Below are positions 2-29,629 of a stretch of DNA of 32,000 nt, piece after piece. The notes under the pieces were generated by a model. That model saw only the letters and a list, made by a program, of their open reading frames with translations, had not been told where the DNA came from and did not search any database. The position numbers were made by a program, and so were the translations under genes. Numbering within the stretch: position 1 is the stretch's first letter; every line of letters starts with the position of its first letter. Origin of the DNA: Candidatus Saccharimonadota bacterium (GTDB lineage: Archaea > Micrarchaeota > Micrarchaeia > Micrarchaeales > Micrarchaeaceae); NCBI RefSeq assembly GCF_002214165.1, contig NZ_CP019964.1, positions 720,001 through 752,000 on the forward strand, read 5' to 3'.

Positions 2-718
2 ATAAAGATTCCGCAATTGAAGGACACAAACCCTGTCGGCATAGATATGGGTTTGCATTCATTTATTGGGATGTCATCTAGAATGAAGATAGAGAAGCCA
101 AGGTTTGTTAGGAAGAGGGCAAAGCATCTTGCAAGATGGCAAAGAAGAATTGCAAAGAGGGAAAAAGGCAGCAAAAGAAGGGAAAATGCAAAGAATCATC
201 TACAAAAGGAATGGGAACACGTTACAGAGCAATCTGATGACTTCTCCCATAAACTTTCTAACAAATTGGTAAATTCAGGATATACTTCATTCGCAGTAGA
301 GGATTTGCACATTCAAAACATGGCAAAAAACCATAATTTTGCGCAGGCAATCTATAATGCTTCATGGAACAGGTTCATCCAAATGCTCTCATACAAGGCT
401 GAAAGTGCCGGCATGAAGGTAATAAGGGTGGATGCAAGAAACACGACACAGGAATGCAGCAACTACCACTGCATAAAGGAAGGCGGCGAAAGGCTGGCTC
501 TAAAAGATAGAGTCTACAACTGCAATAGATGCGGTATGCAGTTAGACAGAGATATAAATGCATCAATAAACATATTGCACAGAGCAACTACCCTCGGACA
601 GAGGGGAAGTCACGCTCAGGGAGATATGGCCTCTGCAGTTCAACAGGAACTGAAAAGTCGCATCGCTGAACTGAGAACCGATAAAACACATCCTTTGCGG
701 GATGCAGTGTTTGCATGA
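2..718 (+). CDS. tnpB: TnpB-like RNA-guided endonuclease (IS200/IS605-family OrfB), 5'-truncated by the window edge
   Basis: The frame is open from nt 2. Motifs occur in canonical order: RuvC-I 'GIDMG', RuvC-II 'AVEDL', zinc ribbon 'CSNYHC...CNRCG', RuvC-III 'DRDINASINI'. Confidence 0.85.
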   Translation: MKIPQLKDTNPVGIDMGLHSFIGMSSRMKIEKPRFVRKRAKHLARWQRRIAKREKGSKRRENAKNHLQKEWEHVTEQSDDFSHKLSNKLVNSGYTSFAVEDLHIQNMAKNHNFAQAIYNASWNRFIQMLSYKAESAGMKVIRVDARNTTQECSNYHCIKEGGERLALKDRVYNCNRCGMQLDRDINASINILHRATTLGQRGSHAQGDMASAVQQELKSRIAELRTDKTHPLRDAVFA

Positions 719-3680: not shown

Positions 3681-5201
3681 ATGGAGGATAGTAGGATAAA
3701 AGAGTTTTCCGAAAGGTTATCCAAGGTGAAAATGCTCCCTAAATCTGAGATTAATTCTGAGGTCATAGGGAATGTGGATTTGGATAGGCTTGTAGACAGG
3801 TTAATTCTAGATATTGGTAGCTTTGTAGGGTTCCATTTTGTAACACTGGAAGAAGTGACGCAAGCAATAGGGGAGATTAACAATGCAAAAATACCTATGC
3901 CTGTTGAGGTTATAAAATCAAGCAGTTTCAAGCCAATAGCATCAGAGTACCATGAGAAATTTGAGATCGAGAACAGGGACGTTGAGCATGCGAATGGGAA
4001 TGTCAACGACTTTGTGGATTATTTTAGGGACCGGCTGCATAGAATAAGAAGGATCCTTGAAACTCACGTGTCTACAGATGGAATACCTGTAGGCAACTTG
4101 AGCCTCCTTAAGGATATGGTTGGCAGAGATGTGTATATAACAGGGATAGTTTCCAGCAAGATAACCACCAAAAAGGGCAACATAATGGTTGTCATGGAGG
4201 ATGAAACAGACAGTGTAAAGGTGATTTTCTCTAATTCGCCTTCAGAGATAGGAAAGAGGCTTTACAATGAGGCTTCTACATTGGTTGATGATGAAGTCAT
4301 AGCAGTAAAGGGCAAGCTGATCAACCAATTCGTAATAGCAAAACAGATTATATGGCCCGATGTTACTATAACAGAAAGGAAGAATGTTGAGGAGGACCTT
4401 GGGATTGCTTTTATATCAGATGTACATGTTGGGAGCAAGCTGTTCCTGGAGCAGAATTTTGAGAACATGATTAAATGGCTGAACGGCGGTGCGCAGGATG
4501 AAAGAAGCAAGGAGATGGCAGGCAAAGTTAAATACTTGGTAGTATCTGGAGATGTTGTTGATGGGATAGGTGTTTACCCCAACCAAGATAGAGACCTTTC
4601 AGTTCCAGATATGTACATGCAGTACCAGATGTTTTTTGACTTGATAGAGGATATTCCCGATTACATACATGTGTTTGTATTGCCTGGAAATCACGATTCG
4701 GTCAGGAGAGCAGAGCCCCAGCCGGCTTTTCCTTCAACTATAATAAAGGACTACAAAAAGGACAACATACATTTTGTTTCAAATCCCTCATATTTAACAT
4801 TGAATGGGATACAGGTGCTTGCTTACCATGGGACCTCTTTGGATTCGATTATAAGCTCTATACCTGGAATGAGTTATGACAAGCCGGAATACCCTATGCT
4901 CGAGCTGCTGAAGCGCAGGCATCTCTCCCCGATATATGGAGGAAATGTCATAGTACCTAGCAAGACCGACAAACTGGTTATAGACAAGGTCCCTGATATA
5001 CTGACGATGGGGCATGTACACAAGAATGCAATTTCCAAGTACAAGGGTGTTACAATTATAAACTCTGGCACATGGCAGGCCAGGACGGCGTTCCAAGTCA
5101 AGTATGGGCAGATACCAACCCCTGCAAGGATGCCGGTATTCGAGATGAAGACCTATAAAGTTACGACTGTAAATTTCAGCAGTGATTCCAATGTATATTG
5201 A
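3681..5201 (+). CDS. polB: DNA polymerase II (PolD) small subunit DP1
   Basis: OB-fold-like middle region plus calcineurin-type phosphoesterase motifs 'ISDVHVGS', 'SGDVVDG', 'PGNHD', 'GHVH'. It is directly followed by DP2. Confidence 0.9.
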   Translation: MEDSRIKEFSERLSKVKMLPKSEINSEVIGNVDLDRLVDRLILDIGSFVGFHFVTLEEVTQAIGEINNAKIPMPVEVIKSSSFKPIASEYHEKFEIENRDVEHANGNVNDFVDYFRDRLHRIRRILETHVSTDGIPVGNLSLLKDMVGRDVYITGIVSSKITTKKGNIMVVMEDETDSVKVIFSNSPSEIGKRLYNEASTLVDDEVIAVKGKLINQFVIAKQIIWPDVTITERKNVEEDLGIAFISDVHVGSKLFLEQNFENMIKWLNGGAQDERSKEMAGKVKYLVVSGDVVDGIGVYPNQDRDLSVPDMYMQYQMFFDLIEDIPDYIHVFVLPGNHDSVRRAEPQPAFPSTIIKDYKKDNIHFVSNPSYLTLNGIQVLAYHGTSLDSIISSIPGMSYDKPEYPMLELLKRRHLSPIYGGNVIVPSKTDKLVIDKVPDILTMGHVHKNAISKYKGVTIINSGTWQARTAFQVKYGQIPTPARMPVFEMKTYKVTTVNFSSDSNVY

Positions 5202-8200
5202 CGATTATTTCAGATCTATAAACGAGGGTGTCAAAAAAGCTTATGAGCTGGCAGAGAGGGCAAGATCAAAAGGTTATGACCCGGAAACCTTTGTTGAGAT
5301 AAAGCCCGCCCCCGATCTGGCTTCAAGAGTTGAAGGTATTATAGGTATAGACGGATTGGCAAAGATAATAGAAAAGGAGGCTGAAGGAGTAAAATCCAAT
5401 GAGGAGCTTGCATTCAACGTTGCAAGGTATATCTGCAAAGATACAAGATTTGATGATAGGAGCATTGAAAAAAGGCTTTTGCTTGCGGCAAGGGTCGGCT
5501 TGGCTATACTTACCGATGGAATCCTGGTTGCACCAACAGAAGGGCTGCAGAACGTAGAATTGCACAAAAATCTGGATGGCACAACTTATGCCGCAATACT
5601 GTATGCCGGCCCTATAAGGGGCGCAGGAGGGACCAGCGCGGCGCTTTCCGTAGCGCTTCTGGATGCCGCAAGACGGGAATTTGGTATAGGGGATTATAAG
5701 CCAACACAGACTGAAATAGAGAGATTTATTGAAGAGGTGGGTATATATAATTCAAGGGTGGCAAGGCTGCAATATCTGCCTCCTGATGAGGATATACGTA
5801 CCATATTGCAGAACTGTCCTGTATGCATAGATGGATTGCCAACGGAGGATATAGAGGTCACAATGCATCGCAATATAGAGAGGCTTGATGCCAATGGAAA
5901 TCCGCAGCTGATGACAAACAGGGTCAGGAGCGGTATCTGCCTTGTGTCGTGCGAAGGGATAGCCCAAAAAGCAAAGAGCGTGCTGAAGCATACCAAGAAT
6001 TCTGGACTCCCTTGGGATTGGCTTACAAAGATAATAAAAGTTGACAAAGGAACAACAACTACATCATCTGCTGCTCCGAAGACTGCTGTATTCCTGCAGG
6101 AACTTGTGGCGGGAAGGCCTGTTTTCTCTTACCCTGATCATCCAGGGGCATTCAGATTGCGTTATGGAAGATCACGGTTTACTGGTATAGCCTCAAAAGG
6201 GTTTAACCCTGTAACAATGTCCATGATGAATGGATTTATAGCTACAGGAACACAGCTAAAAGTTGAAAAGCCTGGAAAGGGCTGTGTTGCCGTTCCGGTG
6301 ACATCTATTGAGGGGCCATTCGTCAAGCTTGATACTGGAGAGGCATTCAGGATAGACAAATATCAGGAGTACCTAAAGTACAAGGACAGAATCCAAAAGA
6401 TAATGTCCGTGGGGGATATTTTGGTAACGTATGGGGATTTCAAAAAGACAAATACCCCAATGCAGCCGACAAGTTATGTGGAGGAATACTGGTACTTGCA
6501 GCTTACAGCAAATGGTTATTCGGGAGGGATCCCAGAAGTCAATTCCTTTAAGGATGCATATGAATTCTCAAAGAAGTACAATGTGCCTATACATCCAAAA
6601 TATCTGTATGATTATTCTGATATAAACATTTCAGACATGAAGTTTCTAATAAATAAGTTGAAGGGACTGAAGTTTGAATCTGATAACCTTTTTGATGTCA
6701 AGTCTATTGAGTTCTCTGGAACCGACCTTGAAAGAGCAAGGAACATCCTTGAAGTCATCTGCATACCCCACTTCGACAAATCAGATAAGATTATAATAGA
6801 ACAAGATGACGCACAGAGCCTTATATTATCAGCTGGGCTTGTAGATGATGAAAAGGTGAACCTCAATAAGTATGACTTAAGCAGCTATAATGACAAAGTT
6901 GATTCTCTGAGCCTATTAAACAGTGTAAGCCCGATAAAGATAATGAGAAGGTCAACAAGGATAGGCGGAAGGATGGGAAGGCCTGAGAAAGCTAAAGAAC
7001 GTATGATGAAGCCTTCTCCTAACGTTCTTTTCCCAATATCTGATTATGGTACAAGGGAGAGGAGCATATACAAAGCATTGATGCAGGAGTACAAGAACCT
7101 TGGCAATAAATATATTAACGTGGAGATGGCGAACTTCATATGCGATAAAGGAGGAGAGCCAGTCACCTCTTTCTACTGCACTAAGCATAAATGCAGGGCA
7201 CATATAGAGAAGATATGCAAGAACTGCGGAAACAAGGTTGAAGGCGACAAATGTGAAAAATGTGGAGGAAGCCCTATATCTTATAGTTCAAGATCCATCA
7301 GCTTGGTTGGACTTATGGAAGAGGCAATGAAAAATGTGGATGTCAATATAGCTCCTAAGAACTTGAAAGGTGTTATGGGATTGGTCAGCGGGAGCAAAGT
7401 TCCTGAAAGCTTGGACAAAGGCATACTTAGGGCAATACACAATATAACAATTTTTAAGGACGGGACATCTAGGTTTGATGCCACGGATACACCTCTAACC
7501 CACTTCTATCCACGCGAAATGAACGTTTCCGTGGAAGCGCTGAAAAAGCTCGGATATGATAAGGATTACTTAGGCAATCCTTTGGAGAAGGATGACCAGC
7601 TAGTGGAGATGATGCACCAAGACGTTATAATGAACAACAGGGGCGCGGAGTACCTTTTGCACATTGCTCAGTTTATCGATGACCTTTTGGTCAGATTTTA
7701 CCGCCTTGAACCTTATTACAATATAAAAACTGCAGAGGACCTTCTTGGCCATTATGTAATAACCCTATCACCACATACTTCCGCAGGCGTGGTCGGAAGG
7801 ATAGTTGGTTTTACCAAGGCGAATGTTGGCTTTGCACACCCCTATTACATATCTGCAAGGAGAAGGAACTGCGATGGTGATGAGGACACAACAATGCTGA
7901 TGATGGATGCCCTTCTTAACTTCTCGAAAAGCTACCTGCCTACAACCATAGGGGGAACTATGGATGCGCCATTAATTCTCACGGTAAACGTTAAGCCGGA
8001 GGAGGTTGACGATGAAGTTCACAACATGGAGATAACAAAGAGTTATAGCAAGGAATTTTATGATAAGACCTTTGATTACGTTTCCCCATCTGATGAAAAA
8101 GTGCTTATAGTGGAGGATAACCTTGATACTGACAAAGTCTATAGCCATGTGGAATTTACCCATCTGAGCGATATAAATTCCATTGATGAGGCTCCCCTTA

Positions 8201-14412: not shown

Positions 14413-15435
14413 TTATATGCTATAGAGATTGGATAGGAATTCTGAGCTAGCTGGCTTGCTTTTATTGGCTGAAGGGTCGTACAATTTAGGCTTTACACCA
14501 GTTATTACGGAAACCACTTTGACCTGATCTCCAAGATCATTGGACAGTCTGGCGCCGAATATGACATTTGCCTTGTTGTCCATTCCTTCTGTCACTCCCT
14601 CTCCTAATCTGGTGGCATCCGCTATTGTAAGGTCCGGGCCTCCAGTTACATGCACCAAGGCACTCCTTGCGTTCTCCAATTCTGCATTGAGAAGAGGATG
14701 CTCTTTGTTGGAACGAATCGCTTTTTCAACCCTGTCTACACCTGAGCCGTAACCTATGCTTATCAATGCTGTACCACTATTTCCAAGAACGCTTTTTAAG
14801 TCGGCGAAATCGAGATTTATAAGGCTTGGCAGGCTTATCGTATCCGTTATGCCTTTTACTGAATTCAATATTACATTATCCACTATGCCAAGTGCTTTGT
14901 CAATTGGAAGGTTTGGGGCATAGCTCAACAGCTTCTCATTCTCAATTATTATCGTTGAATCTGAATTCTTGGAGAGCTTTTCTATTGACGCATCCGCACT
15001 TATTCTCCTGCTCCTTTCTAAGTGGAACGGGTAGGTGACAAAGGAAACTACAAGCGAACCTTGTTCTTTGCCTAATTTTGCCAGATATGGTATTGTCCCG
15101 CTTCCGGTTCCACCTCCCATTCCCGCAATCAAAAACAGTATATCGTACCCCTTTATCGCTGATCTTACCTCGTCTTCGCTTGATTCGGCAGCTTTCAGTG
15201 CTACTTCAGGGAACCCGCCTGCACCCAATCCGCGGGTTATGCTCTTGCCCAAGAGCAGCTTCTTCTGGGCATTTATTATGCTTAGGTGCTTTATGTCCGT
15301 ATTCATTGCTATCGTATCCGCGCTCTTGATGCCTGCATTGAATAGATGGTTGATTGCATTGCTGCCCATCCCTCCAAGACCTACGATTCCTATCTTGGCT
15401 GAAAGGTCATCAATTCTATCATCTGCAGGCATCAA
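14413..15435 (-). CDS. ftsZ: FtsZ paralog (downstream copy, 340 aa)
   Basis: 'GLGGMGSNAINHL', 'GKSITRGLGAGGFPE', tubulin signature 'GMGGGTGSGTIP'. The SD-like AAGGTGA lies 7 nt before the ATG. Confidence 0.9.
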   Translation of the reverse strand: MMPADDRIDDLSAKIGIVGLGGMGSNAINHLFNAGIKSADTIAMNTDIKHLSIINAQKKLLLGKSITRGLGAGGFPEVALKAAESSEDEVRSAIKGYDILFLIAGMGGGTGSGTIPYLAKLGKEQGSLVVSFVTYPFHLERSRRISADASIEKLSKNSDSTIIIENEKLLSYAPNLPIDKALGIVDNVILNSVKGITDTISLPSLINLDFADLKSVLGNSGTALISIGYGSGVDRVEKAIRSNKEHPLLNAELENARSALVHVTGGPDLTIADATRLGEGVTEGMDNKANVIFGARLSNDLGDQVKVVSVITGVKPKLYDPSANKSKPASSEFLSNLYSI

Positions 15436-15446
15436 AGTTCACCTTT

Positions 15447-16541
15447 TCATCCTATCATTTCCAGGTCGGAGTAAGGGTCGCTTGCAGATTCTCTCTGCTT
15501 TGTATCAAGCTTCCCTATTATGCTGGAACCCTTGACTCCCGTAACTATTGCGACAATTTCTATTCCATCATCAAATCCTGGAATTATCCTTGCGCCGAAC
15601 TTTACGTTTGCCTTAGGATCCATCCTCTCGGTTATTATCTCTCCAGCCTTTGTAGCATCTCCCAATGATAGCGAAGATCCGCCAGATACGTGTATTATTG
15701 CACCTCCTGCGCCTTCAAAGTCTACGTCAAGAAGCTTGTTCTTCAGTACGCTCTCTGCAGCGAGATTCACCTTGTCCGTGCCTCTTCCTGTTCCTATTGC
15801 TATGAAGCCTACATCGCCATGGCCCATTATAGATCTTACATCTGCAAAGTCTATGTTTATCATGCTTGGCTGTGTTATGGTCCATACCAGTCCTCCTATC
15901 GCTTTTGCTATTACCTCATCCGCCAATGCAAAAGCCTTATCCATAGGCAGATTTGGGACAAGCTGCACTAACCTGTTGTTGTCCAGTATTATGACGCTGT
16001 CGCTGTATTTCCTAAGCTCCTGGATTCCTTCTTCAGCCTTTACTTTCCTTACTCTTTCAAGATTGAAAGGATAAGTGACCATTGATATTACAATTGCCCC
16101 CTGGTCCTTTGCTATCTGTGCAGCTACTGGAAGTGCACCTGTAGCGGTTCCTCCTCCCATTCCTCCGCACAGGAATACCAACTGCGCATCCTGGAATTCC
16201 TTTTCTATCAAGGACCTATCGACTTCTGCAGCCTTCTTTCCTACTGCTGGATCACCGCCTGCACCCAATCCGCGGGTTATGCTCTTGCCTATCATTACCT
16301 TTCTAATGCGGTCATCAATTATCTTAAAATGCTGAGAATCTGTATTGAATGATACAAATTCAGTGCCTTTAACTCCAGCTTTTATAAGCCTGTTTACACT
16401 GTTTGCACCTCCTCCACCAAACCCTGCAGTAACAATCTTTATCTCTGAAGAACTGAATTCATCAGAAACTGCACCCTTATCTGCATTGTCGTCTCCCACA
16501 CTTGCGTTCCCACCTAGAAGGTCACTTACCAAATCTGTCAT
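15447..16541 (-). CDS. ftsZ: FtsZ paralog (upstream copy, 364 aa)
   Basis: 'GFGGGGANSVNRL', 'GKSITRGLGAGGDPA', 'GMGGGTATGALP'. There is an 11-nt gap to the downstream paralog. Confidence 0.92.
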   Translation of the reverse strand: MTDLVSDLLGGNASVGDDNADKGAVSDEFSSSEIKIVTAGFGGGGANSVNRLIKAGVKGTEFVSFNTDSQHFKIIDDRIRKVMIGKSITRGLGAGGDPAVGKKAAEVDRSLIEKEFQDAQLVFLCGGMGGGTATGALPVAAQIAKDQGAIVISMVTYPFNLERVRKVKAEEGIQELRKYSDSVIILDNNRLVQLVPNLPMDKAFALADEVIAKAIGGLVWTITQPSMINIDFADVRSIMGHGDVGFIAIGTGRGTDKVNLAAESVLKNKLLDVDFEGAGGAIIHVSGGSSLSLGDATKAGEIITERMDPKANVKFGARIIPGFDDGIEIVAIVTGVKGSSIIGKLDTKQRESASDPYSDLEMIG

Positions 16542-16646: not shown

Positions 16647-17288
16647 TTACTTTGGAATTTTGAATGAATTAATTATATAACCAGATTTATTCATAACGAC
16701 AATAAGATTGTAGTTGGACAGGTTTGAGCTGTAATTGAGCAGCCAAATGTTCCGGTAATATGCCTTAGGCTGCGTTAAGTTTAGGTTGCTATAGAACTTC
16801 GCAGACGCCGTTATGTTTTTTAAGCCGTAATCTGTTATGTAGCTGTTGAGGTCTGACGTGTTTTCTATATAGGCGCATGTTAATGCCACAGGGCCCATCG
16901 TTATATCGGAATATGGTGTTTCACAGGTTTGATTTCCATATATGGAGCAATCGCTTGAGTAAACGCTTATCACTGTGGGCACCAAAGTGACAGCTGGATA
17001 GTTGTAAGACTCTATCTCTAGGGTAGGGCATACGGAATTTGAGTAGTTTATCAGCCTTAATGTTATATCCCAGCTATCATTCGCAAGCTTTGATTTTGTT
17101 ATGTTCATTATCGTGATATTGGAATTGGGATTTTCCAGCTTAATGTCCTTTGTCACAATCGATAGGGCTTCATTCTCTGTAATATAATTGGGTTTTACCT
17201 TGACAAAATAGCTGTGTACTATGAATATTATTGCAATCACCGCTATCAGTATAATAGCCATGACCATTACTTTGAGAATTATGTCCAT
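16647..17288 (-). CDS. N-terminally membrane-anchored extracellular protein, sequon-rich, function unknown
   Basis: A single N-terminal TM helix ('VMVMAIILIAVIAIIFIV') is followed by a Cys-containing region with more than 10 N-x-S/T sequons. Confidence 0.55.
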   Translation of the reverse strand: MDIILKVMVMAIILIAVIAIIFIVHSYFVKVKPNYITENEALSIVTKDIKLENPNSNITIMNITKSKLANDSWDITLRLINYSNSVCPTLEIESYNYPAVTLVPTVISVYSSDCSIYGNQTCETPYSDITMGPVALTCAYIENTSDLNSYITDYGLKNITASAKFYSNLNLTQPKAYYRNIWLLNYSSNLSNYNLIVVMNKSGYIINSFKIPK

Positions 17289-17331
17289 AATCCTATATTA
17301 GTAGATAAAATTTAAAAATTAGTTGAAATTA

Positions 17332-17802
17332 TCAACCGAATAGGAATCCCACTCCAGCATTGGCATTTGATTCTTCCTCGTTCAGCCTTTTTATCACTAT
17401 TCCCCCTTTTTCGGCATCTGCACGCTTTATTGTCTTGAATTTTCTCTTGAACATGTCTTCTGCCCTGTCCAAAAATTCTTCGTTTGCTTTTATGTAAAGG
17501 TAGTATTTGTCGTCTTCAAAACCATAGTAGGAACTCTCCTTTAGCTCGCATTGCTCCCTAGCAAATATGGTATTGAGATCCTTATCTGTCTTTATTTTCT
17601 CCAATGCCTCTGCCCTTTTCTTGTTTAACTCCTCTGCCTGCTGCTTGAATTCTGGATGCTTCTCCAAGTAGTCCTCTTTGTTCCATTGCTCAGGAATAGG
17701 TGGTATAAGGGTATTGTCAAGGTAAGGATCATATGAGAGCAATTTGGACAAAGATTCGACTTCTTCCTTGTCTACCGAATACACTCTTTCAGTCATGCTC
17801 AC
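17332..17802 (-). CDS. Hypothetical acidic protein with ribosomal P-stalk-like C-terminal tail (…EEESNANAGVGFLFG)
   Basis: The start ATG overlaps the rps8e stop (ATGA, 4-nt overlap). The C-terminal 15 aa resemble the conserved archaeal aP1/aP0 tail (acidic run followed by G-x-G-x-LFG). Confidence 0.6.
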   Translation of the reverse strand: MSMTERVYSVDKEEVESLSKLLSYDPYLDNTLIPPIPEQWNKEDYLEKHPEFKQQAEELNKKRAEALEKIKTDKDLNTIFAREQCELKESSYYGFEDDKYYLYIKANEEFLDRAEDMFKRKFKTIKRADAEKGGIVIKRLNEEESNANAGVGFLFG

Positions 17803-18197
17803 TCATCCAGAAGTTTTGCGTTTATGAATCCTTCCCTTCCAGGGCGATTCAAGACTACAGCTTTTCCGACGTCTGTGTTTATTATTGTGCCTTTTGTTAT
17901 AGTATTCAGCCTAGCAAAGTTTCTGTTATCTTTGGATTCTACAACGACTTTTATCTTTGCTTTCTTGTACCCCTCTTTGGTAAGTACGTTTGCTGTTGCT
18001 GCTTTCTTCAGCTTTGATGTGATCTTTCCCCCTCTGCCCCTGTAATTGACTCTGACATCCTCTTCAGACATCTTTGTAGATATAAAATAGTTTCCTATCT
18101 CGTACCTCTTTTTGTCCCTAAACTTTACTTTGCGCTTTCCGCTGCCTGTGCGTATTGTTTTTGACTTCGAATGCATCTGCTTGCTAAGTAAACTCAT
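17799..18197 (-). CDS. rps8e: 30S ribosomal protein S8e
   Basis: Basic N-terminus 'RTGSGKRKVKFRDKKRYEIG' and C-terminus 'VLNRPGREGFINAKLL', characteristic of eS8. Confidence 0.88.
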   Translation of the reverse strand: MSLLSKQMHSKSKTIRTGSGKRKVKFRDKKRYEIGNYFISTKMSEEDVRVNYRGRGGKITSKLKKAATANVLTKEGYKKAKIKVVVESKDNRNFARLNTITKGTIINTDVGKAVVLNRPGREGFINAKLLDE

Positions 18198-18339
18198 TTT
18201 ATCACTAAATTAAGAATTTTATAAGGTAAATTCTACAGCCTGTAAAAATAATGCAATAAATGTTTTGGTGGGAAATTATAAATATCTTTCACTTAGGATA
18301 AGCTTAAATTTTAAAATGTAAATATTCTTGTGTGAATTT

Positions 18340-18683: not shown

Positions 18684-19259
18684 TTATCTCTTCTTTGCCG
18701 TTTTTGTGAAAAACTTGTCAATCATAATGTTTATCGATCTTTCTGCGCTTTCCCTCTTATAATCGTTGATTATCTCGTAATCGCACTTTATCTTATTCAG
18801 CTCCGTTTCAGTAGAATCATTTGATTCTGTTGTGGTTGGCTTCCTTCCATAAAGCCTCTTGTATATATTGTCCCTGGCATCTTTGCTGCTCCTTATCTTT
18901 ACCGTTATTGTGTTAGGGAAATTCCTTTTTATCTCACTATACTCGTGCAAAAATCTTAAATCGTCTATTATGAACGGCTCCAAGTTCCTCCTTTTTATCT
19001 TGTTAACCGCGTAATTTATCCAGACCATCTTGTCTATATCGCGCATCTTTGCTCCTAGAACCTGCAGGAGCCTTCTGTTTTTCTTTTTCATTCCAAAAAG
19101 GTCCCTTGCAAGCCTTTTTATCTCATCCGCTATAGAGAGCTTATGTGCCTTTATATTGCGCCTTTTCAGCTCCTGCACCAGTAGTTTTGACATATAGGTT
19201 TTACCGGATGCGAAAGGGCCGACAAACGCTATATTTACAGTACCATAAGATTTCTTCAA
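18684..19259 (-). CDS. P-loop NTPase, (d)NMP-kinase-like
   Basis: Walker A 'GPFASGKTY'. The 'LLQVLGAKMRDIDKMVWINY...FIIDDLRF..E' layout resembles small dNMP kinase-like proteins. The assignment is tentative. Confidence 0.4.
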   Translation of the reverse strand: MKKSYGTVNIAFVGPFASGKTYMSKLLVQELKRRNIKAHKLSIADEIKRLARDLFGMKKKNRRLLQVLGAKMRDIDKMVWINYAVNKIKRRNLEPFIIDDLRFLHEYSEIKRNFPNTITVKIRSSKDARDNIYKRLYGRKPTTTESNDSTETELNKIKCDYEIINDYKRESAERSINIMIDKFFTKTAKKR

Positions 19260-19500
19260 TCTGCATCACTAGTAATATTTAAAATTTTTATATTTTATAG
19301 CTATCGCTTGTAAGTTCAATGCTTTATCTGGCTGCTAATGATATGAAAAACTCTTGTGCTCCATTCAAAATAAGTTTTTATACAATAGATAGCTTGCCGT
19401 AGGGATTATGTATTATTTGGACTAAATGTGAATCCCAACGCTAAAGTAAGCAAGCCTTAAACTGCTTTTAACAAAAATAATAAAAATAGGATTAAAAATT

Positions 19501-20025
19501 TCACTTTCCTCCTTTCATCTGATTCAAAAAGTCTTTCATCTTGCTTTTATCTGAAAGTGTGTTAAAGACTTTATTATAATCGCTTATGATTTCATCCAAT
19601 TGCTTGGTTATATTTTCATTTATCTCGGAATTGGATTTGCTGATCTTGTCATTGAATTCTTTTATTTTGTTGTCAACTCCTTTTATCCCTAGGGACTGCA
19701 TATCATTTGACTGAACTGACAGTTTTTCAGTTTCCTTATAGGCTTGCCTGAATTTATTATATATGGAATCTGTAAGGTGCTTAACACTGTAATATTCCTT
19801 TTGTCCTTCGTAAGATTCGACTAGCTTATCCCTTTTGTTCAAAAGGTCTGTTATCTTATTTTCCTGGTCCTTCTTATACTCCTTAGGTAGATGATATGTC
19901 AATAGATCTGCTGTTTCTTCATTTAGTTTTTCATTTTTTGATTTGAATATTCCCACCATGTTATCACAATTATATCTATCCCTATTTATATATTTAATAA
20001 TTCGCATTTGATGGGAACTGTTCAT
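19501..20025 (-). CDS. Hypothetical coiled-coil protein
   Basis: The ORF is K/E/N-rich with heptad-like character. An alternative start is 19959 ('MVGIFKSKNEK'). No recognisable motif. Confidence 0.4.
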   Translation of the reverse strand: MNSSHQMRIIKYINRDRYNCDNMVGIFKSKNEKLNEETADLLTYHLPKEYKKDQENKITDLLNKRDKLVESYEGQKEYYSVKHLTDSIYNKFRQAYKETEKLSVQSNDMQSLGIKGVDNKIKEFNDKISKSNSEINENITKQLDEIISDYNKVFNTLSDKSKMKDFLNQMKGGK

Positions 20026-20106
20026 AGATTATTACCGTTTTTGTAATAGCGGTTTATTTTTATTTTGGGCAATTTTTATTGTGATTTGTTGCAACATGCC
20101 AAAAAT

Positions 20107-20649
20107 TTACCTTATTCCGGATTTGTTCTGCTTCTCGTTTTTGTATATGCTTAGTATTTCGTTAATTCTGGAATCTATCTCAGACCAGTGTGAACCTCTC
20201 CAGTAGGTTTTTCCGCATTTGGGGCACTTGTAAAATTTATCGTACGCATCCAGTGAATTTTTAGGTATTTTATCGCTTTCAAGGCTGGCCTTGTTTATCC
20301 TTATAAGTCTGGCTCCGCAAGAAGTGCATAGGCTGCCCGCTTTGATCCTGCTTGCATCTATGTCCATGCGCTTTAGAACATATGCTACTTGGTGGTTCAG
20401 GTCAATATTGGAAGGCACGCATATTGCTTTTACCCTTATCTTCTCTGCCCTCCGTGAAAACTCGACATCGCTTGTCAATAGCACAGGGTGCCGATAGCGC
20501 TTTATATAATTAAGTATCTGGGTGTCGTCAATATACTTGGCGTCGTTAACCTTTATTCCAAGCAGTCTCATCCATCGGGCAACCTTTGCCATCATTATAT
20601 CTGCCACTATGTTAAGCCTGTATAGTGGGACGGGTTGGGATTCATGCAT
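20107..20649 (-). CDS. Mut7-C RNase-domain protein (PIN-like fold plus C-terminal zinc ribbon; DUF82 family)
   Basis: 'VADIMMAKVARWMRLLG', 'LLTSD', 'CTSCGARL', 'FYKCPKCGKTYWRGSHW' match the Mut7-C pattern. Confidence 0.75.
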   Translation of the reverse strand: MHESQPVPLYRLNIVADIMMAKVARWMRLLGIKVNDAKYIDDTQILNYIKRYRHPVLLTSDVEFSRRAEKIRVKAICVPSNIDLNHQVAYVLKRMDIDASRIKAGSLCTSCGARLIRINKASLESDKIPKNSLDAYDKFYKCPKCGKTYWRGSHWSEIDSRINEILSIYKNEKQNKSGIR

Positions 20650-20797
20650 AATTAGGTTTTGTATATATTGTTATTTATATCTAAACCTTATTTATACATG
20701 CCCGTTCCATAGATCTTTGGGATTTTTAGTACATTTGGTTTGCCTAATTAGAGGCATTGAAAAAGCATAATAAGTTTAATCTGAAAAGTTAATTCAG

Positions 20798-23095
20798 ATG
20801 ATAAAGTCTATAGATTTGAAGAATTGGAAGGTCCACAGTGATACCCATCTTGATTTTGACAAAGGGGTAAACATACTCATAGGTATAATGGGTGCAGGGA
20901 AAAGCTCAATAGTTGATGCGATATCATTTGGCTTGTTCGGCACATTCCCTGCTCTAAATTCGGGCAGGGTGAAGCTTGACAATTTGATATCGAATTCCGC
21001 CAATGTAAACGAAGCCTCCGTAAAACTGGAATTTGATATAGACAATAACAGTTATACAGTTACAAGGAAAATAAAGAGGGAAAAGGGGGCAGATGCATTG
21101 CTGGAAAAGAATGGGAAATTCCTGCAGACACAGCCTAAAAGAGTCAATGAAGAGATAGAGTCGTTGCTCAAATTGAACTACGACACCTTTATTAAGGCAA
21201 TATATGCTGAGCAGAACAAGCTCGACTATTTTTTGGACATACGCAAAGGCGAGAGAAAGAAAAGCATAGATGAGATGCTTGGGCTTGACCGTTTCACCAA
21301 TGTGGATGAAAATGCGACCTCAGTAATAGGTATGATAAACCGCATAATCAAGGAAGATGAACAGCTAATAGGCAATATAGATGTCAGATCGATAAAACAG
21401 CAGATAGAGGACTTGTCGGTGAAGAAGCAGGATATTTTAGGAGAGATAGGCTCTTACAAATCCGAATTTGGAAAGCTTAGTTTAGAAGTTGAGAAATATG
21501 CAAATTCGCTCAAGGAGATGAAGGAAAAGAGATTGAAGAAGTTGAAACTGAAAGAGGAAATGGCAAGCATATCGTCAAAAATCAATACCCTTAAGGCAGA
21601 GATGGAAAAAATCAGTGTACCTATGCAAAAGGAGGAACTGGAGAACAATTACCTGATTGCAAAAAATAAGTTTGAATCGCTGTCTGCTGATTTAGAGAAG
21701 TCTAGGAAACAGCAGATGGACCTTGCGAGGGATATTGCAACCGCCAAATCAGATTTTGAGGCAAACAGCAAAAAGCTTAAGGAGAATGAGGAAATATTAC
21801 TTAAAGTAAAAGAATTTGAGAAGCTTGATCTCGATAAGGCAATAGCTGAGGCTGAGGATAGAATAAACAAGGAGAATCTTGAGATTGCATCTGATGAAGG
21901 AAGCGTTAAGGAGCTTTCAAAGTGGGTGGCCGAACTTTCAAAAGATATAAGCAAATGCCCTGTATGTGACAGGGAGATTGGCACTGACCTTAGGCTAAAG
22001 CTCCTTGAAGAAAAAAACAGCTCAATAGCAGATTACAAATCGAAGATATTATTGCACAAGAATGAACTGAACGCATTAAAGGAAAAGTTCAATGCTTTCA
22101 ATGAGGATAAAAGAAAGCTTGACATATTGAGGGGAAAACTTGAGGATATTGATAAGATTAAGCAGATAATTGATCTTCTATCTTCAAAGAGTCAGAACTT
22201 GAAATCGCAGTATGAGTTAGTGGCAAAAACTGTAGAGGGATATAATTCAAATAGAGAGCAGGCAAGGGAGGATGTCAATAAGATTGAAAAATATATAGAG
22301 GACTTGAAGAGGCAGGAAACCTTAAAAAAGTCAATAGATACAGAGAATAAGGCTCTCAAGGAAAAGAATGGGGAATTCCAATCGATAGATATATCTGAAG
22401 ACAGGATAGAGAATTTACAGAACGAATACAACAACCTTTACTCAAAGCGCAATGAGATAAAGATAAGGTATGAGACAGGCAAAAAGCGCTACGATGACAT
22501 ACTTCTGCAGATAGCCGATAAGATAAATCAGGTAAACAGGGTTGAGGAAAGCGAAGAAAGGGTAAGCAGCAGAAAGCGCCTTGTTTCTTCGTTGGAAAAA
22601 TTCAGGACCGCGCTCAAGGAAACGGAATCTGGTTTAAGGAACCGGCTTGTTTCCTCAGTAAATGATGTTATGGCAGACTTATGGCCCAAGATCTATCCTT
22701 ATGGTGACTATGAATACATAATGCTCAATACGTATAAAGATGACTATCTGCTTGAAGGTATTGTAAATATAAATGGGAAAAAGGAAAAAGTTTCGATTGA
22801 CTCATTTGCAAGCGGAGGTGAAAGGAGCACAGCAAGCCTTGCTCTCAGGATTGCATTGGGAATGGTCATAGTTCCGAACCTAAAATGGATAATACTTGAT
22901 GAGCCGACGCATAATTTGGATGCTGCAGGGATAAGCAGGCTCGTATCCGTTTTTAGTGAAACACTGCCAGATATAGTAGAGCAGATTTTCATAATAACGC
23001 ATGATGACAGCTTAAAGCAGGTACATCCGGCGAAAATATATATGGTTGAAAGGGACAAGGAAGCAAGAGCACCTGCTGCCATATCTGAATTATAA
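20798..23095 (+). CDS. rad50: Rad50-type SMC-like ATPase (765 aa) with central zinc hook
   Basis: Walker A 'GIMGAGKSSIVDAISFGLFG', Q-loop 'AEQNKL', CPVC hook at 21956-21967 (aa 387-390, mid coiled-coil), signature 'SGGERSTASLALRIAL', Walker B 'IILDEPTHNLD', H-loop 'ITHD'. Confidence 0.85.
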   Translation: MIKSIDLKNWKVHSDTHLDFDKGVNILIGIMGAGKSSIVDAISFGLFGTFPALNSGRVKLDNLISNSANVNEASVKLEFDIDNNSYTVTRKIKREKGADALLEKNGKFLQTQPKRVNEEIESLLKLNYDTFIKAIYAEQNKLDYFLDIRKGERKKSIDEMLGLDRFTNVDENATSVIGMINRIIKEDEQLIGNIDVRSIKQQIEDLSVKKQDILGEIGSYKSEFGKLSLEVEKYANSLKEMKEKRLKKLKLKEEMASISSKINTLKAEMEKISVPMQKEELENNYLIAKNKFESLSADLEKSRKQQMDLARDIATAKSDFEANSKKLKENEEILLKVKEFEKLDLDKAIAEAEDRINKENLEIASDEGSVKELSKWVAELSKDISKCPVCDREIGTDLRLKLLEEKNSSIADYKSKILLHKNELNALKEKFNAFNEDKRKLDILRGKLEDIDKIKQIIDLLSSKSQNLKSQYELVAKTVEGYNSNREQAREDVNKIEKYIEDLKRQETLKKSIDTENKALKEKNGEFQSIDISEDRIENLQNEYNNLYSKRNEIKIRYETGKKRYDDILLQIADKINQVNRVEESEERVSSRKRLVSSLEKFRTALKETESGLRNRLVSSVNDVMADLWPKIYPYGDYEYIMLNTYKDDYLLEGIVNINGKKEKVSIDSFASGGERSTASLALRIALGMVIVPNLKWIILDEPTHNLDAAGISRLVSVFSETLPDIVEQIFIITHDDSLKQVHPAKIYMVERDKEARAPAAISEL

Positions 23096-25531: not shown

Positions 25532-28500
25532 TCATGTTAGATAAGAGTAGGTATCGAAATTTGCTGTCTCCGACATGTTGTTGTAAACCGTCACATTTAT
25601 TGTGTATGGAGGAGGGTTTGGCGTGTATGGTGGATGGTCTCCTGGATAACTATAACACCCATTGCCACTGCAGGTCCAGTTATTAAGGTAGTTTACATAA
25701 CAGGTGCGGCCACTGCAGCTTGGAGGCTTTTTGAGTAGCGCTTCTATTTCTATGGTGCTTCCGCAATTGACTTCTTCACTGCTTGGGGATACGGACCCCG
25801 GACCGGATGAGCTTAATCCAAGTTCATATGTTTTAAGGCTGAAAGTTGCAGCTTCTACTATAGGGCTTGACATCACAACAAAGGCAGATGTATATGGATA
25901 TGTGGTCTGCTGCTCTGGCCCACTCCAACAGTTATTTCCACTGCAGGTCCAACCATTAAATGTTGCACAGCTATTTGAAGTGGAATATGAAAGTGATATA
26001 TCAGAATATGGGGTTTCCCAATAAGTTGACGATGATGTGGTTGATCCTCCGGGTGAAGCAGTAGCTGTCCCATCACCAGATGGGCTTACTAGAAGTATTA
26101 ATGCGACATCGTAGTTCGCCTGCTCCATGAACGGTACAGTTGGAACTTTAACCGTCAAGGTTGTATTATATGTGTAGTAGGTACACAAAACTACATTACA
26201 CTCACCCTGAACCGTTGTGTAACAATCGCTGGATGAAATACCTGATGGACAATCAGACCCACCACAGGAATCATATTGAGTACACTGATTAGCAACATGG
26301 CTTGGATTATAATAGCCAGTCCAGTTGACAAACTTGTAGCCTGTATTGTTAACTTCTGAAAAAGTGATTGAAGATCCGGGGAAGTACCAGCCACTGCCAG
26401 GCGAAAGGGAGTAAGCTGCACCTGAAGGCGATGAGAGCTCAGTTAGGTATACATCGTAGTTGGCCTGCTCTTTGAAGTCCACACTTGGTACAGTCAAGCT
26501 GAATTGGGATAAAGTACTCTTCTCGTAGCCAGTCCAATTGACAAACTTATATCCTGTATTGTTCTTTCCGGATAAAGTGATTGAAGATCCGGGGAAGTAC
26601 CAGCCACTGCCAGGATTTAATGAGGAAACCCCACTTGATGGGTAGGAGAGCTCAGTTAGGTATACATCGTAGTTGGCCTGCTCCGTGAACGGTACTGTCG
26701 GAACTGTCATGCCAAATGAGGATGAAGTACTCTTCTCGTAGCCAGTCCAGTTGACAAACTTATATCCTGTGTTGTTCTTTCCGGATAAAGTGATCGAAGT
26801 TCCAGGTGCGTACCAGCCGCTGCCAGGTGATAATGAATAAGCCGCATTTGATGGGTATGAAAGCTCAGTTAGGTATACATCGTAGTTGGCCTGTTCGGTA
26901 AATGGTTCTGTCGGAACTGTCATGCCAAAGGATGAAGAAGTGCTGCCTTCATATCCTGTCCAGCCTATAAATAAGTATCCTGTATTGTTCGTCTCGGACA
27001 ATGTGATTGAATTTCCAGGGAAGTACCAGCCACTGCCAGGCGAAAGCGTCTTTGCACCCCCTGAAGGGAATGAGAGCTCTGTAAGGTATATATCGTAGTT
27101 GGCCTGCTCCGTGAAGTCTGTATTTGGAACTGCCATCGTGAAAGATGAAGAAGTGCTCTTCTCGTATCCTGTCCAATTGACAAACTTGTATCCTGTGTTG
27201 TTAGTCTCGGACAATGTTATTGATGAGTTTGGTAGATACCAGCCACTGCCAGGCGAAAGCTTCTTTGCACCTCCTGAAGGGAATGAGAGCTCAGTTAGGT
27301 ATACATCGTAATCAGCGGTTTCGTTGAAAGGAGAATTTGGTGCAGTCATTGTAAAGTTTGAAGAATTGCCGCTATCATATCCTACCCATTTCGCAAATTT
27401 GTATCCTGTTGTATTGGTCTCTGTGAAATACAGGGAAGCTCCGGGTGTTTCCCAGAAAATAGAGGATGAATTAGTTGATCCTCCTGGAGACACTGTTGCC
27501 TTTCCATCTCCGTGTTCATATACTGATAGTTTTAGGGCAACTGCGTATTCCGCAGTTTCCGTGAATGGGGTACTTGGCACAGTTATTGATAATTGGTTAT
27601 TGGTTGAGCTGAACTGGCCTGTCCAATTGACAAACTTGTAGCCTGTGTTGTTCACTTCTGTTAGTGTAATTGATGAATCCGGTGCGTACCATCCAGTTCC
27701 AGGTGAAAGCGTCTTTGCACCATTTGATGGTGATGAGAGCTCTGTAAGGTATACATCATAGTTGGCCTGCTCCGTGAAGTCTGTATTCGGCACTACCATT
27801 GTAAATGATGAGGATGCATTGTTCTCATATCCTGTCCATCCTGCAAACTTATATCCAGTATTATTTACTTCTGTTAGTGTAATTGATGAATCCGGTGCGT
27901 ACCAGCCGCTTCCGGGCAATAATGATGAAGCCGCACTTGAAGGTGATGCAAGTTCATTTAAATATACATCATATTCTGCAGTTTCGTTTATAGGATAATC
28001 CATTGTTACAGTTGGTGATGTGTTGTCTCCCGTATAGTTGCCTGTACCCAATCCGGAATATCCATAAAACTTGAATGTTGAATTTGCAGGTGACTCTCCT
28101 AGTGTTACCTTTGATCCATAAGATTCAGGATAACTTTTGAATGTTGATGAATTTGTGGATGTGCCAGAGGGAGTTGACGCGGTTATTGTCCCATCGCCTC
28201 CTGGGATTACTCTCAATGAAAGCATAGGGTCAAAATTTGCTGTCTCGTTTACTGGATTAGACATTATAATTGTTGGGGATTGGCTGTTTCCAGAATAACA
28301 TGTGCTTCCTATTGATGTGGATGCAGCACATGTCCAGTTTGCGAAAACCCATTCTTTTGGATTGGAGGATTTCGCGGAAAGCTGCAATGATGAATCCTTC
28401 TTGTAATACCCGTTCGAGGATAATGGGGACGATGATACAACACCTGAAGAATATGATGGATTGACATTTTCATTTAGCTTGTAGTAAGTTGTGTAATTGA

Positions 28501-29629
28501 ATGAAACTGTCGTTGAATTGCAGTATATTGGTATTGATCCTGTCGAATTGTAGTACTTTACGCCGTTTGATTCCGCATATGTGAAGTTCTCGTATGCCTC
28601 GTTTGATACCAGTGTAACCTGTGATGGCGTTGAGTAGTTAAGTTCGGAATTGCATATTGTGGTCCCAGTTGCATTCTTTGTGAATGTGGTGCTGTTGATT
28701 GGAGTTGTTATGGTAACCTTACCATAAGGGACATTGAATATCAAGTGGTACTGGGTTACAGGTGAAAAGTTTATGTATACGTAATGGCTTGTGTAATTTC
28801 CAAAAGTCGCATTCACTTTTATGTTGCCAATAGTTGTTCCATATACAAATGAGTGTGCGATTCCCTGCGACGAGGTAGATGCATAAGTAGGGAACAATGT
28901 TTCCTCATCTGGAACCTCTGTGAAATTCACAGTTGATCCTGCAAGAGGATATCCGAGGAATATGACATTTGCGGTCAGTTCGTCAGGATAATTATCAGCA
29001 GGCCATCTTCCGTTGTGACCACTTGATGCATTAAGTGAAATTGTCAATGAAGGCTTTACCACCAATGCGACATGTGCATTGAATTTTCCTGCATAAATCT
29101 GCTTTGGTGCATTTGTACATGAGGAAGAATTTGATAGTGCACAGTCATCAGAATTTAAATAAAGGTTTCCATATGCATAGGCATTTGTTGGTAAGTACGT
29201 CGACATATTTGCAATGCATATTATGGATCCTCCAGGAAGCACATAACTTGGATAGCAAGAATGGGTAACATTAACCTTGTTATATTCTACAGTAATTGAT
29301 GGATCTTTTATAGCGTAATCTTTGCTATTTGTAAGAAGCAGAGATATTGTAGATGTATGGGATATTGAATTTGATCCAAGTTCCATGTCCTCGCAGTTTG
29401 CTCCTGTTGTAAACGAGCAACTGTTTGGAATCACACTAGATGGGACCGCAACGAAAAAGTATAGGAGTGACACTATTATTGCAATTATAAGTATTGCCCA
29501 ACCATAAGTAACAAGGTATTCAAGAGCAGATTGCGCTTCACTGTGCTCTTTTATGGAGTCAGTTTCAATCTTTTTCTCTAGCCTTTTCATGCTCTTTTTG
29601 CTATCTCTCTTATTACGGCGATCCGCCAT
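25532..29629 (-). CDS. Giant (1365 aa) surface protein: class III (type IV pilin-like) signal peptide plus about 12 InlB-B-repeat-like (YxFxxW) beta domains
   Basis: 'AQSALEYLVTYGWAILIIAIIVSLLYF' (aa 32-58) matches the archaeal class III signal / pilin N-terminal motif. Downstream modules repeat as 'YDVYLTELS.PS....L.PGSGWY.P.SSITLSE.NNTGYKF.NWTGY.....F.M.VP...FTEQAN'. There is no C-terminal anchor. Sequons are dense. Confidence 0.85.
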   Translation of the reverse strand: MADRRNKRDSKKSMKRLEKKIETDSIKEHSEAQSALEYLVTYGWAILIIAIIVSLLYFFVAVPSSVIPNSCSFTTGANCEDMELGSNSISHTSTISLLLTNSKDYAIKDPSITVEYNKVNVTHSCYPSYVLPGGSIICIANMSTYLPTNAYAYGNLYLNSDDCALSNSSSCTNAPKQIYAGKFNAHVALVVKPSLTISLNASSGHNGRWPADNYPDELTANVIFLGYPLAGSTVNFTEVPDEETLFPTYASTSSQGIAHSFVYGTTIGNIKVNATFGNYTSHYVYINFSPVTQYHLIFNVPYGKVTITTPINSTTFTKNATGTTICNSELNYSTPSQVTLVSNEAYENFTYAESNGVKYYNSTGSIPIYCNSTTVSFNYTTYYKLNENVNPSYSSGVVSSSPLSSNGYYKKDSSLQLSAKSSNPKEWVFANWTCAASTSIGSTCYSGNSQSPTIIMSNPVNETANFDPMLSLRVIPGGDGTITASTPSGTSTNSSTFKSYPESYGSKVTLGESPANSTFKFYGYSGLGTGNYTGDNTSPTVTMDYPINETAEYDVYLNELASPSSAASSLLPGSGWYAPDSSITLTEVNNTGYKFAGWTGYENNASSSFTMVVPNTDFTEQANYDVYLTELSSPSNGAKTLSPGTGWYAPDSSITLTEVNNTGYKFVNWTGQFSSTNNQLSITVPSTPFTETAEYAVALKLSVYEHGDGKATVSPGGSTNSSSIFWETPGASLYFTETNTTGYKFAKWVGYDSGNSSNFTMTAPNSPFNETADYDVYLTELSFPSGGAKKLSPGSGWYLPNSSITLSETNNTGYKFVNWTGYEKSTSSSFTMAVPNTDFTEQANYDIYLTELSFPSGGAKTLSPGSGWYFPGNSITLSETNNTGYLFIGWTGYEGSTSSSFGMTVPTEPFTEQANYDVYLTELSYPSNAAYSLSPGSGWYAPGTSITLSGKNNTGYKFVNWTGYEKSTSSSFGMTVPTVPFTEQANYDVYLTELSYPSSGVSSLNPGSGWYFPGSSITLSGKNNTGYKFVNWTGYEKSTLSQFSLTVPSVDFKEQANYDVYLTELSSPSGAAYSLSPGSGWYFPGSSITFSEVNNTGYKFVNWTGYYNPSHVANQCTQYDSCGGSDCPSGISSSDCYTTVQGECNVVLCTYYTYNTTLTVKVPTVPFMEQANYDVALILLVSPSGDGTATASPGGSTTSSSTYWETPYSDISLSYSTSNSCATFNGWTCSGNNCWSGPEQQTTYPYTSAFVVMSSPIVEAATFSLKTYELGLSSSGPGSVSPSSEEVNCGSTIEIEALLKKPPSCSGRTCYVNYLNNWTCSGNGCYSYPGDHPPYTPNPPPYTINVTVYNNMSETANFDTYSYLT
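26114..27973 (-). repeat. In-frame tandem coding repeats, unit 213 nt (71 aa), 8 units with two expanded variants
   Basis: The marker '(G/A)AGCTC' recurs at 26435, 26648, 26861, 27074 and 27287 with an exact 213-nt spacing. In protein coordinates the units start at aa 553, 624, 695, 774, 845, 916, 987 and 1058. Confidence 0.95.

Follow-up and report, generated by a model that had tools for sequence, protein, structure and literature searches.

Archaeal and eukaryotic ribosomes gather the translation factors aEF1A, aEF2, aIF5B and ABCE1 by means of the C-terminal tail of their stalk, which serves universally as a handle. The archaeal stalk carries seven such tails, whose consensus is an acidic run followed by G-L-(G/S)-A-LFG. 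To our knowledge, and also in the literature that we searched, this tail has so far been known only on P0, P1 and P2. Here we describe a gene, referred to below as the stalk-tail gene, that is located in a 32,000-nucleotide stretch of a Micrarchaeota genome (contig NZ_CP019964.1, positions 720,001 to 752,000 of the forward strand; hereafter the window) and whose product ends in a tail of this type. It is a real gene belonging to an existing protein family, with a conserved C-terminus that aligns with the archaeal stalk protein aP1, a fold other than that of P1 and, in Micrarchaeota, a conserved coupling to rps8e, the gene for ribosomal protein eS8 (S8e). What is new, as judged from the alignments, is a stalk C-terminal domain (CTD) motif on a new scaffold. 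The occurrence of the stalk handle on an unrelated folded domain raises the question whether factor recruitment is also controlled in trans, off the ribosome. We put at about even the chance that this protein is a non-stalk carrier of a stalk-tail mimic, binding aEF1A, aEF2, aIF5B or ABCE1 away from the stalk.

The contacts made by the tail are known from a crystal structure of the Pyrococcus horikoshii aP1 CTD with aEF1A, in which the binding helix runs from E96 to G108, residues L100, L103, S104 and F107 form the hydrophobic face, and a salt bridge joins the G108 carboxylate to aEF1A K324 (PMC4267659). The substitutions L103S, L106S and F107S abolish aEF1A binding and L100S weakens it moderately; L103, L106 and F107 are also responsible for the binding of aEF2 (PMC4267659). 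Counted from the C-terminus, the tail positions of the family correspond to aP1 A99, G102, L103, S104, L106, F107 and G108, with an acidic run just upstream and with G at the position of S104. The window protein ends in ...RLNEEESNANAGVGFLFG, followed by a TGA stop (the end of this open reading frame, ORF, is also written ...NEEESNANAGVGFLFG), and its stalk-CTD-like tail, EEESNANAGVGFLFG-COOH, is encoded at 17335..17379 on the minus strand; the assignment draws on the family logo, on hhalign against aP1 and on synonymous codon variation.

The logo was made from 154 family sequences, with positions anchored on the last F, which is present in 154/154. Position -5 is G in 152/154, position -4 is F, M, V, I or L in 153/154, position -3 is G in 149/154 and position -1 is I, L or V in 146/154. 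A G directly follows the anchor in 135/154 and is the last residue in 101/154, while further upstream A occupies position -8 in 124/154 and E occupies positions -12 (119/154) and -11 (99/154). All full-length Micrarchaeota homologs share the ending [DE]E..x.N.G[VFI][GS].[IL]FG(G); the original prediction, which had noticed the stalk-like ending, would have been undermined by homologs without an LFG-like tail, and the tail is kept in every full-length homolog. When the family profile was compared with full-length aP1 by hhalign, only columns 95-107 matched, against aP1 residues 96-108, end to end and with 54% identity. The aP1 query was checked against known structures: its N-terminal domain agrees exactly with PDB 3A1Y, and the 32-residue chain of 3WY9 is matched in full by its C-terminal 32 residues.

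Across the Micrarchaeota homologs the invariant tail residues use varying synonymous codons (GGA/GGT/GGG/GGC, AAT/AAC, TTC/TTT), which shows that purifying selection acts on the tail at the protein level. On the grounds of conservation and synonymous codon variation, the possibility that this is not a real gene was rejected. A six-frame scan for ORFs with an acidic ending in ...ΦF(G), covering the window and the fetched loci (~0.35 Mb), returned family members only. Tails closer to P1 than the consensus G-Φ-G-x-I-F-G are found in a minority of members, for example ...EENVAAGLSLFG and ...ASGISLFD. The endings of P0110, P0144, P0071, P0146 and P0043 (...AAGLSLFG, ...ASGISLFD, ...ATGLSLFE, ...ASGVALFDL and ...ASGISLF) are nearer to the archaeal and eukaryotic P1/P2 tails. 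The near-invariance of the tail, its position-by-position match to aP1, the purifying selection and the P1-closer tails of some members would all favour a stalk-tail mimic.

A convergent origin of this C-terminus, which we regard as rather unlikely, would make the tail unrelated to translation factors and would assign it to self-association, to docking on an unfoldase, a protease or another partner, or to a membrane or structural contact. Such an origin would suit a motif that is short and polar at the position equivalent to L100; it would also suit gene neighbours that, outside Micrarchaeota, are often nucleotide kinases and not translation genes, and fold analogues of which the nearest, weakly, are PII-like signalling trimers. 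It leaves unexplained, however, that at seven conserved positions, in the acidic run before them and in its exact register relative to the C-terminus the tail agrees with the aP1 CTD. Among specific candidates, a MinD-like membrane-targeting helix (...LFGG) was rejected, as the segment before the tail is acidic and not basic amphipathic as in the MinD/FtsA anchors. Composition, together with the agreement with aP1 at each position, also led to the rejection of an HbYX motif and of a ubiquitin-like di-Gly end; the tail is neither HbYX nor a strict di-glycine, a single G being terminal in the 101 sequences mentioned above.

The body that carries the tail was modelled with AlphaFold2 (AF2). The model of the window protein (mean predicted local distance difference test score, pLDDT, 82.5) comprises β1, α1, a helical insertion, β2, β3, α2 and a long α3. 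According to the AF2 models, positions 17416..17796 (minus strand) encode a ferredoxin-like α/β globular domain (β1-α1-[insertion]-β2-β3-α2-short β4), within which a helical insertion of ~50 aa between α1 and β2 is encoded at 17563..17715 (minus strand; alignments and AF2 helices H38-80). This insertion is restricted to the Micrarchaeota branch, is shorter in the 125-aa Micrarchaeota forms and is absent from members of ~100 aa. The long C-terminal helix α3 that bears the tail is encoded at 17335..17415 on the same strand (AF2 H130-155 in the 156-aa numbering), and pLDDT falls below 50 over the last 7 residues. The tail runs straight on from this confidently predicted helix, with no A/P-rich low-complexity segment. 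A 97-aa member, from a group that includes the Thermoplasmatota-named P0176, gave a model of pLDDT 89.8 with the same core, no insertion and an equivalent helix (H71-91). In both models a confident α/β domain bears a long helix, and the tail forms the end of this helix, where confidence is low; this arrangement would be in keeping with the binding role that we favour.

Compared with the C-termini of aP1 (L12P), of eukaryotic P1/P2 and of aP0 (uL10), the family shares the acidic run and the motif A-x-x-G-Φ-(G/S)-x-(L/I)-F-G at the extreme end, in a tail predicted to be flexible or helical, and, like aP1, the protein is acidic (pI ~4.9 and net charge ~-7 over the first 128 residues; family median pI ~5.0). 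Unlike aP1, it has no N-terminal all-helical dimerisation domain, which in aP1 binds P0, the AF2 body being β-α-β-β-α. It also differs from aP1 in having no Ala/Pro/Glu/Lys hinge before the tail, a polar residue at the L100 position, no match to Pfam PF00428 (Ribosomal_60s) and a gene that follows rps8e in Micrarchaeota and is variably placed elsewhere. The original prediction had stated that the body does not resemble the aP1 dimerisation domain, and this is borne out by the absence of a Pfam match, by the α/β fold of the model and by an hhalign match confined to the last 13 residues.

It had also entertained a highly divergent stalk component. That the protein is a highly divergent P1, or the only stalk ortholog of its organism, is in our judgement very improbable. 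The stalk-like tail and the acidic protein would fit a divergent P1. On the other side, no Ribosomal_60s match was obtained even at E<=1, and both the helical dimerisation domain and the Ala/Pro hinge are missing from the predicted α/β protein, in which similarity to aP1 is limited to the last 13 residues. The gene follows rps8e, and the tail scan of the window and of L001-L028, together with Pfam on the large window ORFs, found no P0/P1-type tail besides those of the family, and hence no L11-L1-P0-P1 operon. In a published arCOG inventory, the complete Micrarchaeota genome of Candidatus Mancarchaeum acidiphilum Mia14 is credited with one arCOG04287 (L12E/P1), one arCOG04288 (L10/P0) and the factors aEF1A, aEF2 and aIF5B (PMC5498576 Suppl. 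Data 3). A genome of Ca. Mancarchaeum carries the stalk-tail gene too (L010). On the indirect evidence of P1 and P0 listed in Mia14, the stalk-tail protein is unlikely to be the only P1 ortholog, and the idea of a divergent stalk component is very unlikely to hold as far as P1 is concerned. The listing of P1, P0, aEF1A, aEF2 and aIF5B together in a Micrarchaeota genome also agrees with a tail acting beside the stalk. The supplement of a paper on 163 Micrarchaeota genomes has no L12/K02869 entries.

When both AF2 models were compared with the PDB by Foldseek, the only matches were ferredoxin-like and not significant (PII-like, PstA, GlnK and S6; E 0.04-0.3, template modelling score ~0.45). PII-like proteins, PstA (DarA) and GlnK are the best analogues of both models, with a βαββαβ topology and ~100 aa. 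The matches to them fall short of significance, similarity in sequence was not detected (the Foldseek alignments have 7-25% identity) and no Pfam P-II match was found. The β2-β3 connection of the family has only ~10 residues, and thus no PII-type T-loop is seen; PII proteins, for their part, do not have the long C-terminal helix and tail of the family. Kinship with aEF1B (EF1_GNE), which is likewise a small α/β archaeal translation protein and whose gene lies near the homolog in L001, was rejected (hhalign probability 0.3%, no Pfam match); aEF1B does not carry a stalk-like tail.

The stalk-tail ORF occupies 17332..17802 and has 156 aa, as originally predicted and as confirmed by the sequence, together with the quoted stalk-like ending; this length is counted from a GTG and, as a correction, the strand is the minus strand. 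Its immediate upstream neighbour, in the same orientation, is rps8e (17799..18197), recognized by Pfam Ribosomal_S8e (3.3e-24) and by the NCBIfam eS8 equivalog TIGR00307 (89.6 bits, cutoff 78.25); rps8e would be the first gene of a bicistronic unit. The gene junction (17794..17802, minus strand) reads CTG GAT GAG TGA gc ATG ACT GAA AGA GTG, and comprises the S8e TGA (17799-17801), an alternative GTG (17800-17802) and the conserved ATG (17794-17796). The frame of the ORF thus offers two starts, the GTG at 17802, with a 4-nt GTGA overlap with the S8e TGA, and the ATG at 17796, 2 nt past the stop. Because all homologs start at the ATG equivalent to 17796 (M-x-E-R-V-Y), the product is most likely a protein of 154 aa; its coding sequence is 17332..17796 on the minus strand, including the TGA stop at 17332-17334, and is supported by the AF2 model and by matches in the profile search.

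The claim of translational coupling to rps8e held in one part and failed in another. The ATGA overlap with the S8e stop that it invoked is absent, the ATGA within GGATGAG belonging to a different frame from that of the ORF. The linkage itself is tight and conserved: by tblastn with S8e, this gene is directly upstream on the same strand in 16/16 Micrarchaeota loci examined, and in these loci the conserved start of the stalk-tail gene lies 0-12 nt past the S8e stop or shares 1 nt with it. A TATA-like box, TTATAAAA, at 18217..18224 (minus strand), 19 nt from the S8e ATG, was read from the sequence only and is likely the promoter of a leaderless or short-leader mRNA carrying both genes. Past the stop of the stalk-tail gene there is a T-rich spacer of 43 nt (…AATTTTTAAATTTTAT…; 17289..17331, minus strand), which, again on sequence grounds alone, could plausibly be an oligo-T terminator and/or the TATA box of the next gene. 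A two-gene transcript of rps8e and the stalk-tail gene would be the simplest reading of the TATA-like box, the tight junction and the T-rich spacer.

This linkage also bears on a role as an accessory protein of the ribosome, in which the α/β domain would attach to the particle, perhaps on the small subunit near eS8, and one further factor-recruiting tail would be added. We consider such a role unlikely; it would be a sub-variant of the reading that we favour and not a contradiction to it. The coupling to rps8e in all 16 Micrarchaeota loci implies a stoichiometry like that of ribosomal proteins, the protein is acidic like P1, and the evidence from the tail is the same. Its isoelectric point and negative charge are, however, unlike those of rRNA-binding ribosomal proteins, the S8e linkage is absent in all non-Micrarchaeota contexts examined, the family profile matched no PDB chain, ribosomal or otherwise, in a sequence search, and Foldseek gave nothing significant.

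The window protein is not an orphan; alignments and profile matches assign it to a far larger archaeal family without annotation, in which it belongs to the Micrarchaeota branch. Among GTDB genomes, 14 loci were found, of which 11 are labelled as Micrarchaeota-lineage metagenome-assembled genomes (MAGs; including that of Ca. Mancarchaeum, L010), two as Marsarchaeota and one as Acidoferrum. Acidoferrum is a bacterial genus. The locus concerned, L015 (DATJLP010000014.1, labelled 'Candidatus Acidoferrum sp.'), has the pair of S8e and stalk-tail genes that was otherwise encountered in Micrarchaeota-type loci only, and is possibly a mis-binned contig. The Micrarchaeota homologs are 34-89% identical to the window protein and come in two sizes, ~125 aa and ~150 aa, which differ in the helical insertion between α1 and β2. 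A HMMER profile built from Micrarchaeota sequences only was searched exhaustively against 1.84 billion representative proteins and matched 149 representatives at E<1e-3, of which 38 also passed E<1e-10. Outside Micrarchaeota most matches have 97-110 aa, and match in core and tail with the insertion absent. The named lineages there are Thermoplasmatota and MAGs labelled Marsarchaeota only; other family contigs hold archaeal genes (RpoH, split RpoB, LSm, FEN1, KEOPS Cgi121, PolD). The lineage-specific helical insertion is a mark of the Micrarchaeota branch, and the S8e linkage was seen in Micrarchaeota only.

The family can be recognized by a length of ~97-155 aa, a β1 strand M-x-x-[RV]-[VI]-[YF], α1, a β2 strand [FV]-[AS]-R-x-x-[YIC], a Y-L-Y-I-K-A-like β3, α2, a long α3 and the C-terminal hallmark E-E-x-x-A-x-x-G-Φ-G-x-[IL]-F-G; according to the alignments and the AF2 model, the window protein carries every one of these elements. 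Its members are labelled 'hypothetical protein' in the source databases. No Pfam or NCBIfam family was found for any of 11 members tested (the window protein and 10 diverse members), and the same scan gave a faint signal for the tail of P0030 against the C-terminus of the archaeal L10/P0 model (E 0.015). A PDB search with a tail-only profile, which has 22 columns and for which HMMER is ill-suited, gave nothing relevant. A scan of viral contigs found no relatives, and the literature searched contained no described family and no natural stalk-tail mimic, adaptor or decoy in archaea. The initial view that no family of this architecture had been described thus agrees with the negative outcome of the Pfam, NCBIfam, PDB sequence, fold and literature searches.

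Outside Micrarchaeota the family is found in other gene neighbourhoods. In the Thermoplasmatota-named L022 and the related L025, a P-loop deoxynucleoside monophosphate (dNMP)-kinase-like gene lies directly downstream (6230-6829 and 6317-6835, respectively), and in L022 the gene for the KEOPS subunit Cgi121 is upstream of the family member. In the L034 lineage the directly downstream gene is a deoxythymidine monophosphate (dTMP) kinase (5397-5996), with rpoH ~3 kb downstream, and in one further lineage the family gene stands directly upstream of rpoH-rpoB-rpoA. Other members adjoin AlaX/LSm or unannotated genes. The adjacency to kinases may be a recurring neighbourhood or may be due to chance. 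A weakly similar dNMP-kinase-like gene (pairwise E 0.002-0.01) is also present in the window at 18684-19259 on the minus strand, three genes from the ORF. In L032, a non-Micrarchaeota locus (4249-5312), the family member overlaps by 4 nt with the end of an unannotated upstream gene of 251 aa, which suggests, from the gene layout, translational coupling to a different partner in that lineage. With rps8e in 16/16 Micrarchaeota loci and with rpoH, KEOPS Cgi121, AlaX/LSm and nucleotide kinases elsewhere, the setting is one of information processing and supports a role in translation as a non-stalk tail carrier.

As a non-stalk carrier, the protein would keep its tail disordered until bound; on binding, the tail would put its Φ, I/L and F residues and its terminal carboxylate into the grooves that receive the aP1/aP0 tails on aEF1A, aEF2, aIF5B and possibly ABCE1. 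The α/β domain would provide a second binding surface, and the protein would act off the stalk as an adaptor or buffer for the translation-factor pool, and not as a stalk subunit. In Micrarchaeota it would be made from the eS8 mRNA by translational coupling or re-initiation, and this shared mRNA would imply production at the level of ribosomal proteins. Given one tail per protein against seven on the stalk, and such constitutive expression, the role of an adaptor or buffer, or a ribosome-associated role, would fit better than that of a potent inhibitor. A comparable principle, a free copy of the tail that competes with or replaces the ribosome-bound tails, is found in synthetic stalk-CTD peptides that rival the P stalk in binding proteins such as ricin A chain (PMC6162817); unlike these peptides, the stalk-tail protein is natural, conserved and genome-encoded, and has a folded domain of its own.

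Several points weigh against this reading. The tail motif has only ~13 residues, and the P-value of the pairwise hhalign comparison is modest (0.01). The residue equivalent to aP1 L100 is not hydrophobic: the 15 Micrarchaeota tails listed all have N there, and A, N and E predominate in the family at large. A long flexible Ala/Pro/acidic hinge is missing, which leaves the tail with a short reach, and the neighbourhoods outside Micrarchaeota are inconsistent, consisting of housekeeping genes that indicate no single partner. Finally, both factor binding by the tail and what this binding achieves are inferred.

In a wider form that we advance more tentatively, and hold to be somewhat doubtful, archaea (at least Micrarchaeota, Thermoplasmatota and several metagenomic lineages) would encode a free stalk-tail mimic that regulates or redistributes translational GTPases and ABCE1. 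Such a mimic could sequester factors, pass them on to small subunits or pre-ribosomes, or become a competitor of the stalk during stress. If true, this would add a layer to the control of translation, and the protein would be the first stalk-CTD mimic of natural origin that acts in trans; the idea also offers a hypothesis for ~150 clusters of 'hypothetical proteins' that are without Pfam or NCBIfam coverage. The obligatory coupling to rps8e in the genome-reduced Micrarchaeota suggests that the protein belongs to the core of their translation apparatus.

Downstream of the stalk-tail gene, on the same minus strand, the window encodes a membrane protein of 213 aa (16647..17288) with an N-terminal transmembrane helix, many N-x-S/T sequons and no Pfam family, which is a conserved downstream neighbour in Micrarchaeota (L001 10524-11165; L005 2288-2956). 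Beyond it, tandem FtsZ paralogs are found 12 nt apart at 14413-15435 and 15447-16541 (minus strand), an arrangement that is kept in L001-L004. On the other side of the gene pair, a Mut7-C / Rad50-SMC-like block (window 18684-23095) is inverted with respect to L001 5721-9043, a 66%-identical relative. Compared with L001, tRNA_bind and Mut7-C are separated in the window by two inserted genes (18684-19259 and 19501-20025), and the corresponding place in the window lacks the aS21-EF1B pair that stands beside Mut7-C in L001.

Two further genes towards the ends of the window were recorded. At 17-718 (plus strand) there is a TnpB/Cas12f-like ORF of 233 aa (OrfB_IS605 and TNB domains), whose N-terminal part is apparently missing, either cut by the edge of the window or because the ORF is a fragment, and which overlaps the start of a gene for a major facilitator superfamily (MFS) transporter. 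At 25532-29629 (minus strand), a protein of 1365 aa contains six divergent InlB-type B-repeat (Flg_new_2) domains and a Big_1-like segment, and is probably a cell-surface protein of this DPANN archaeon.

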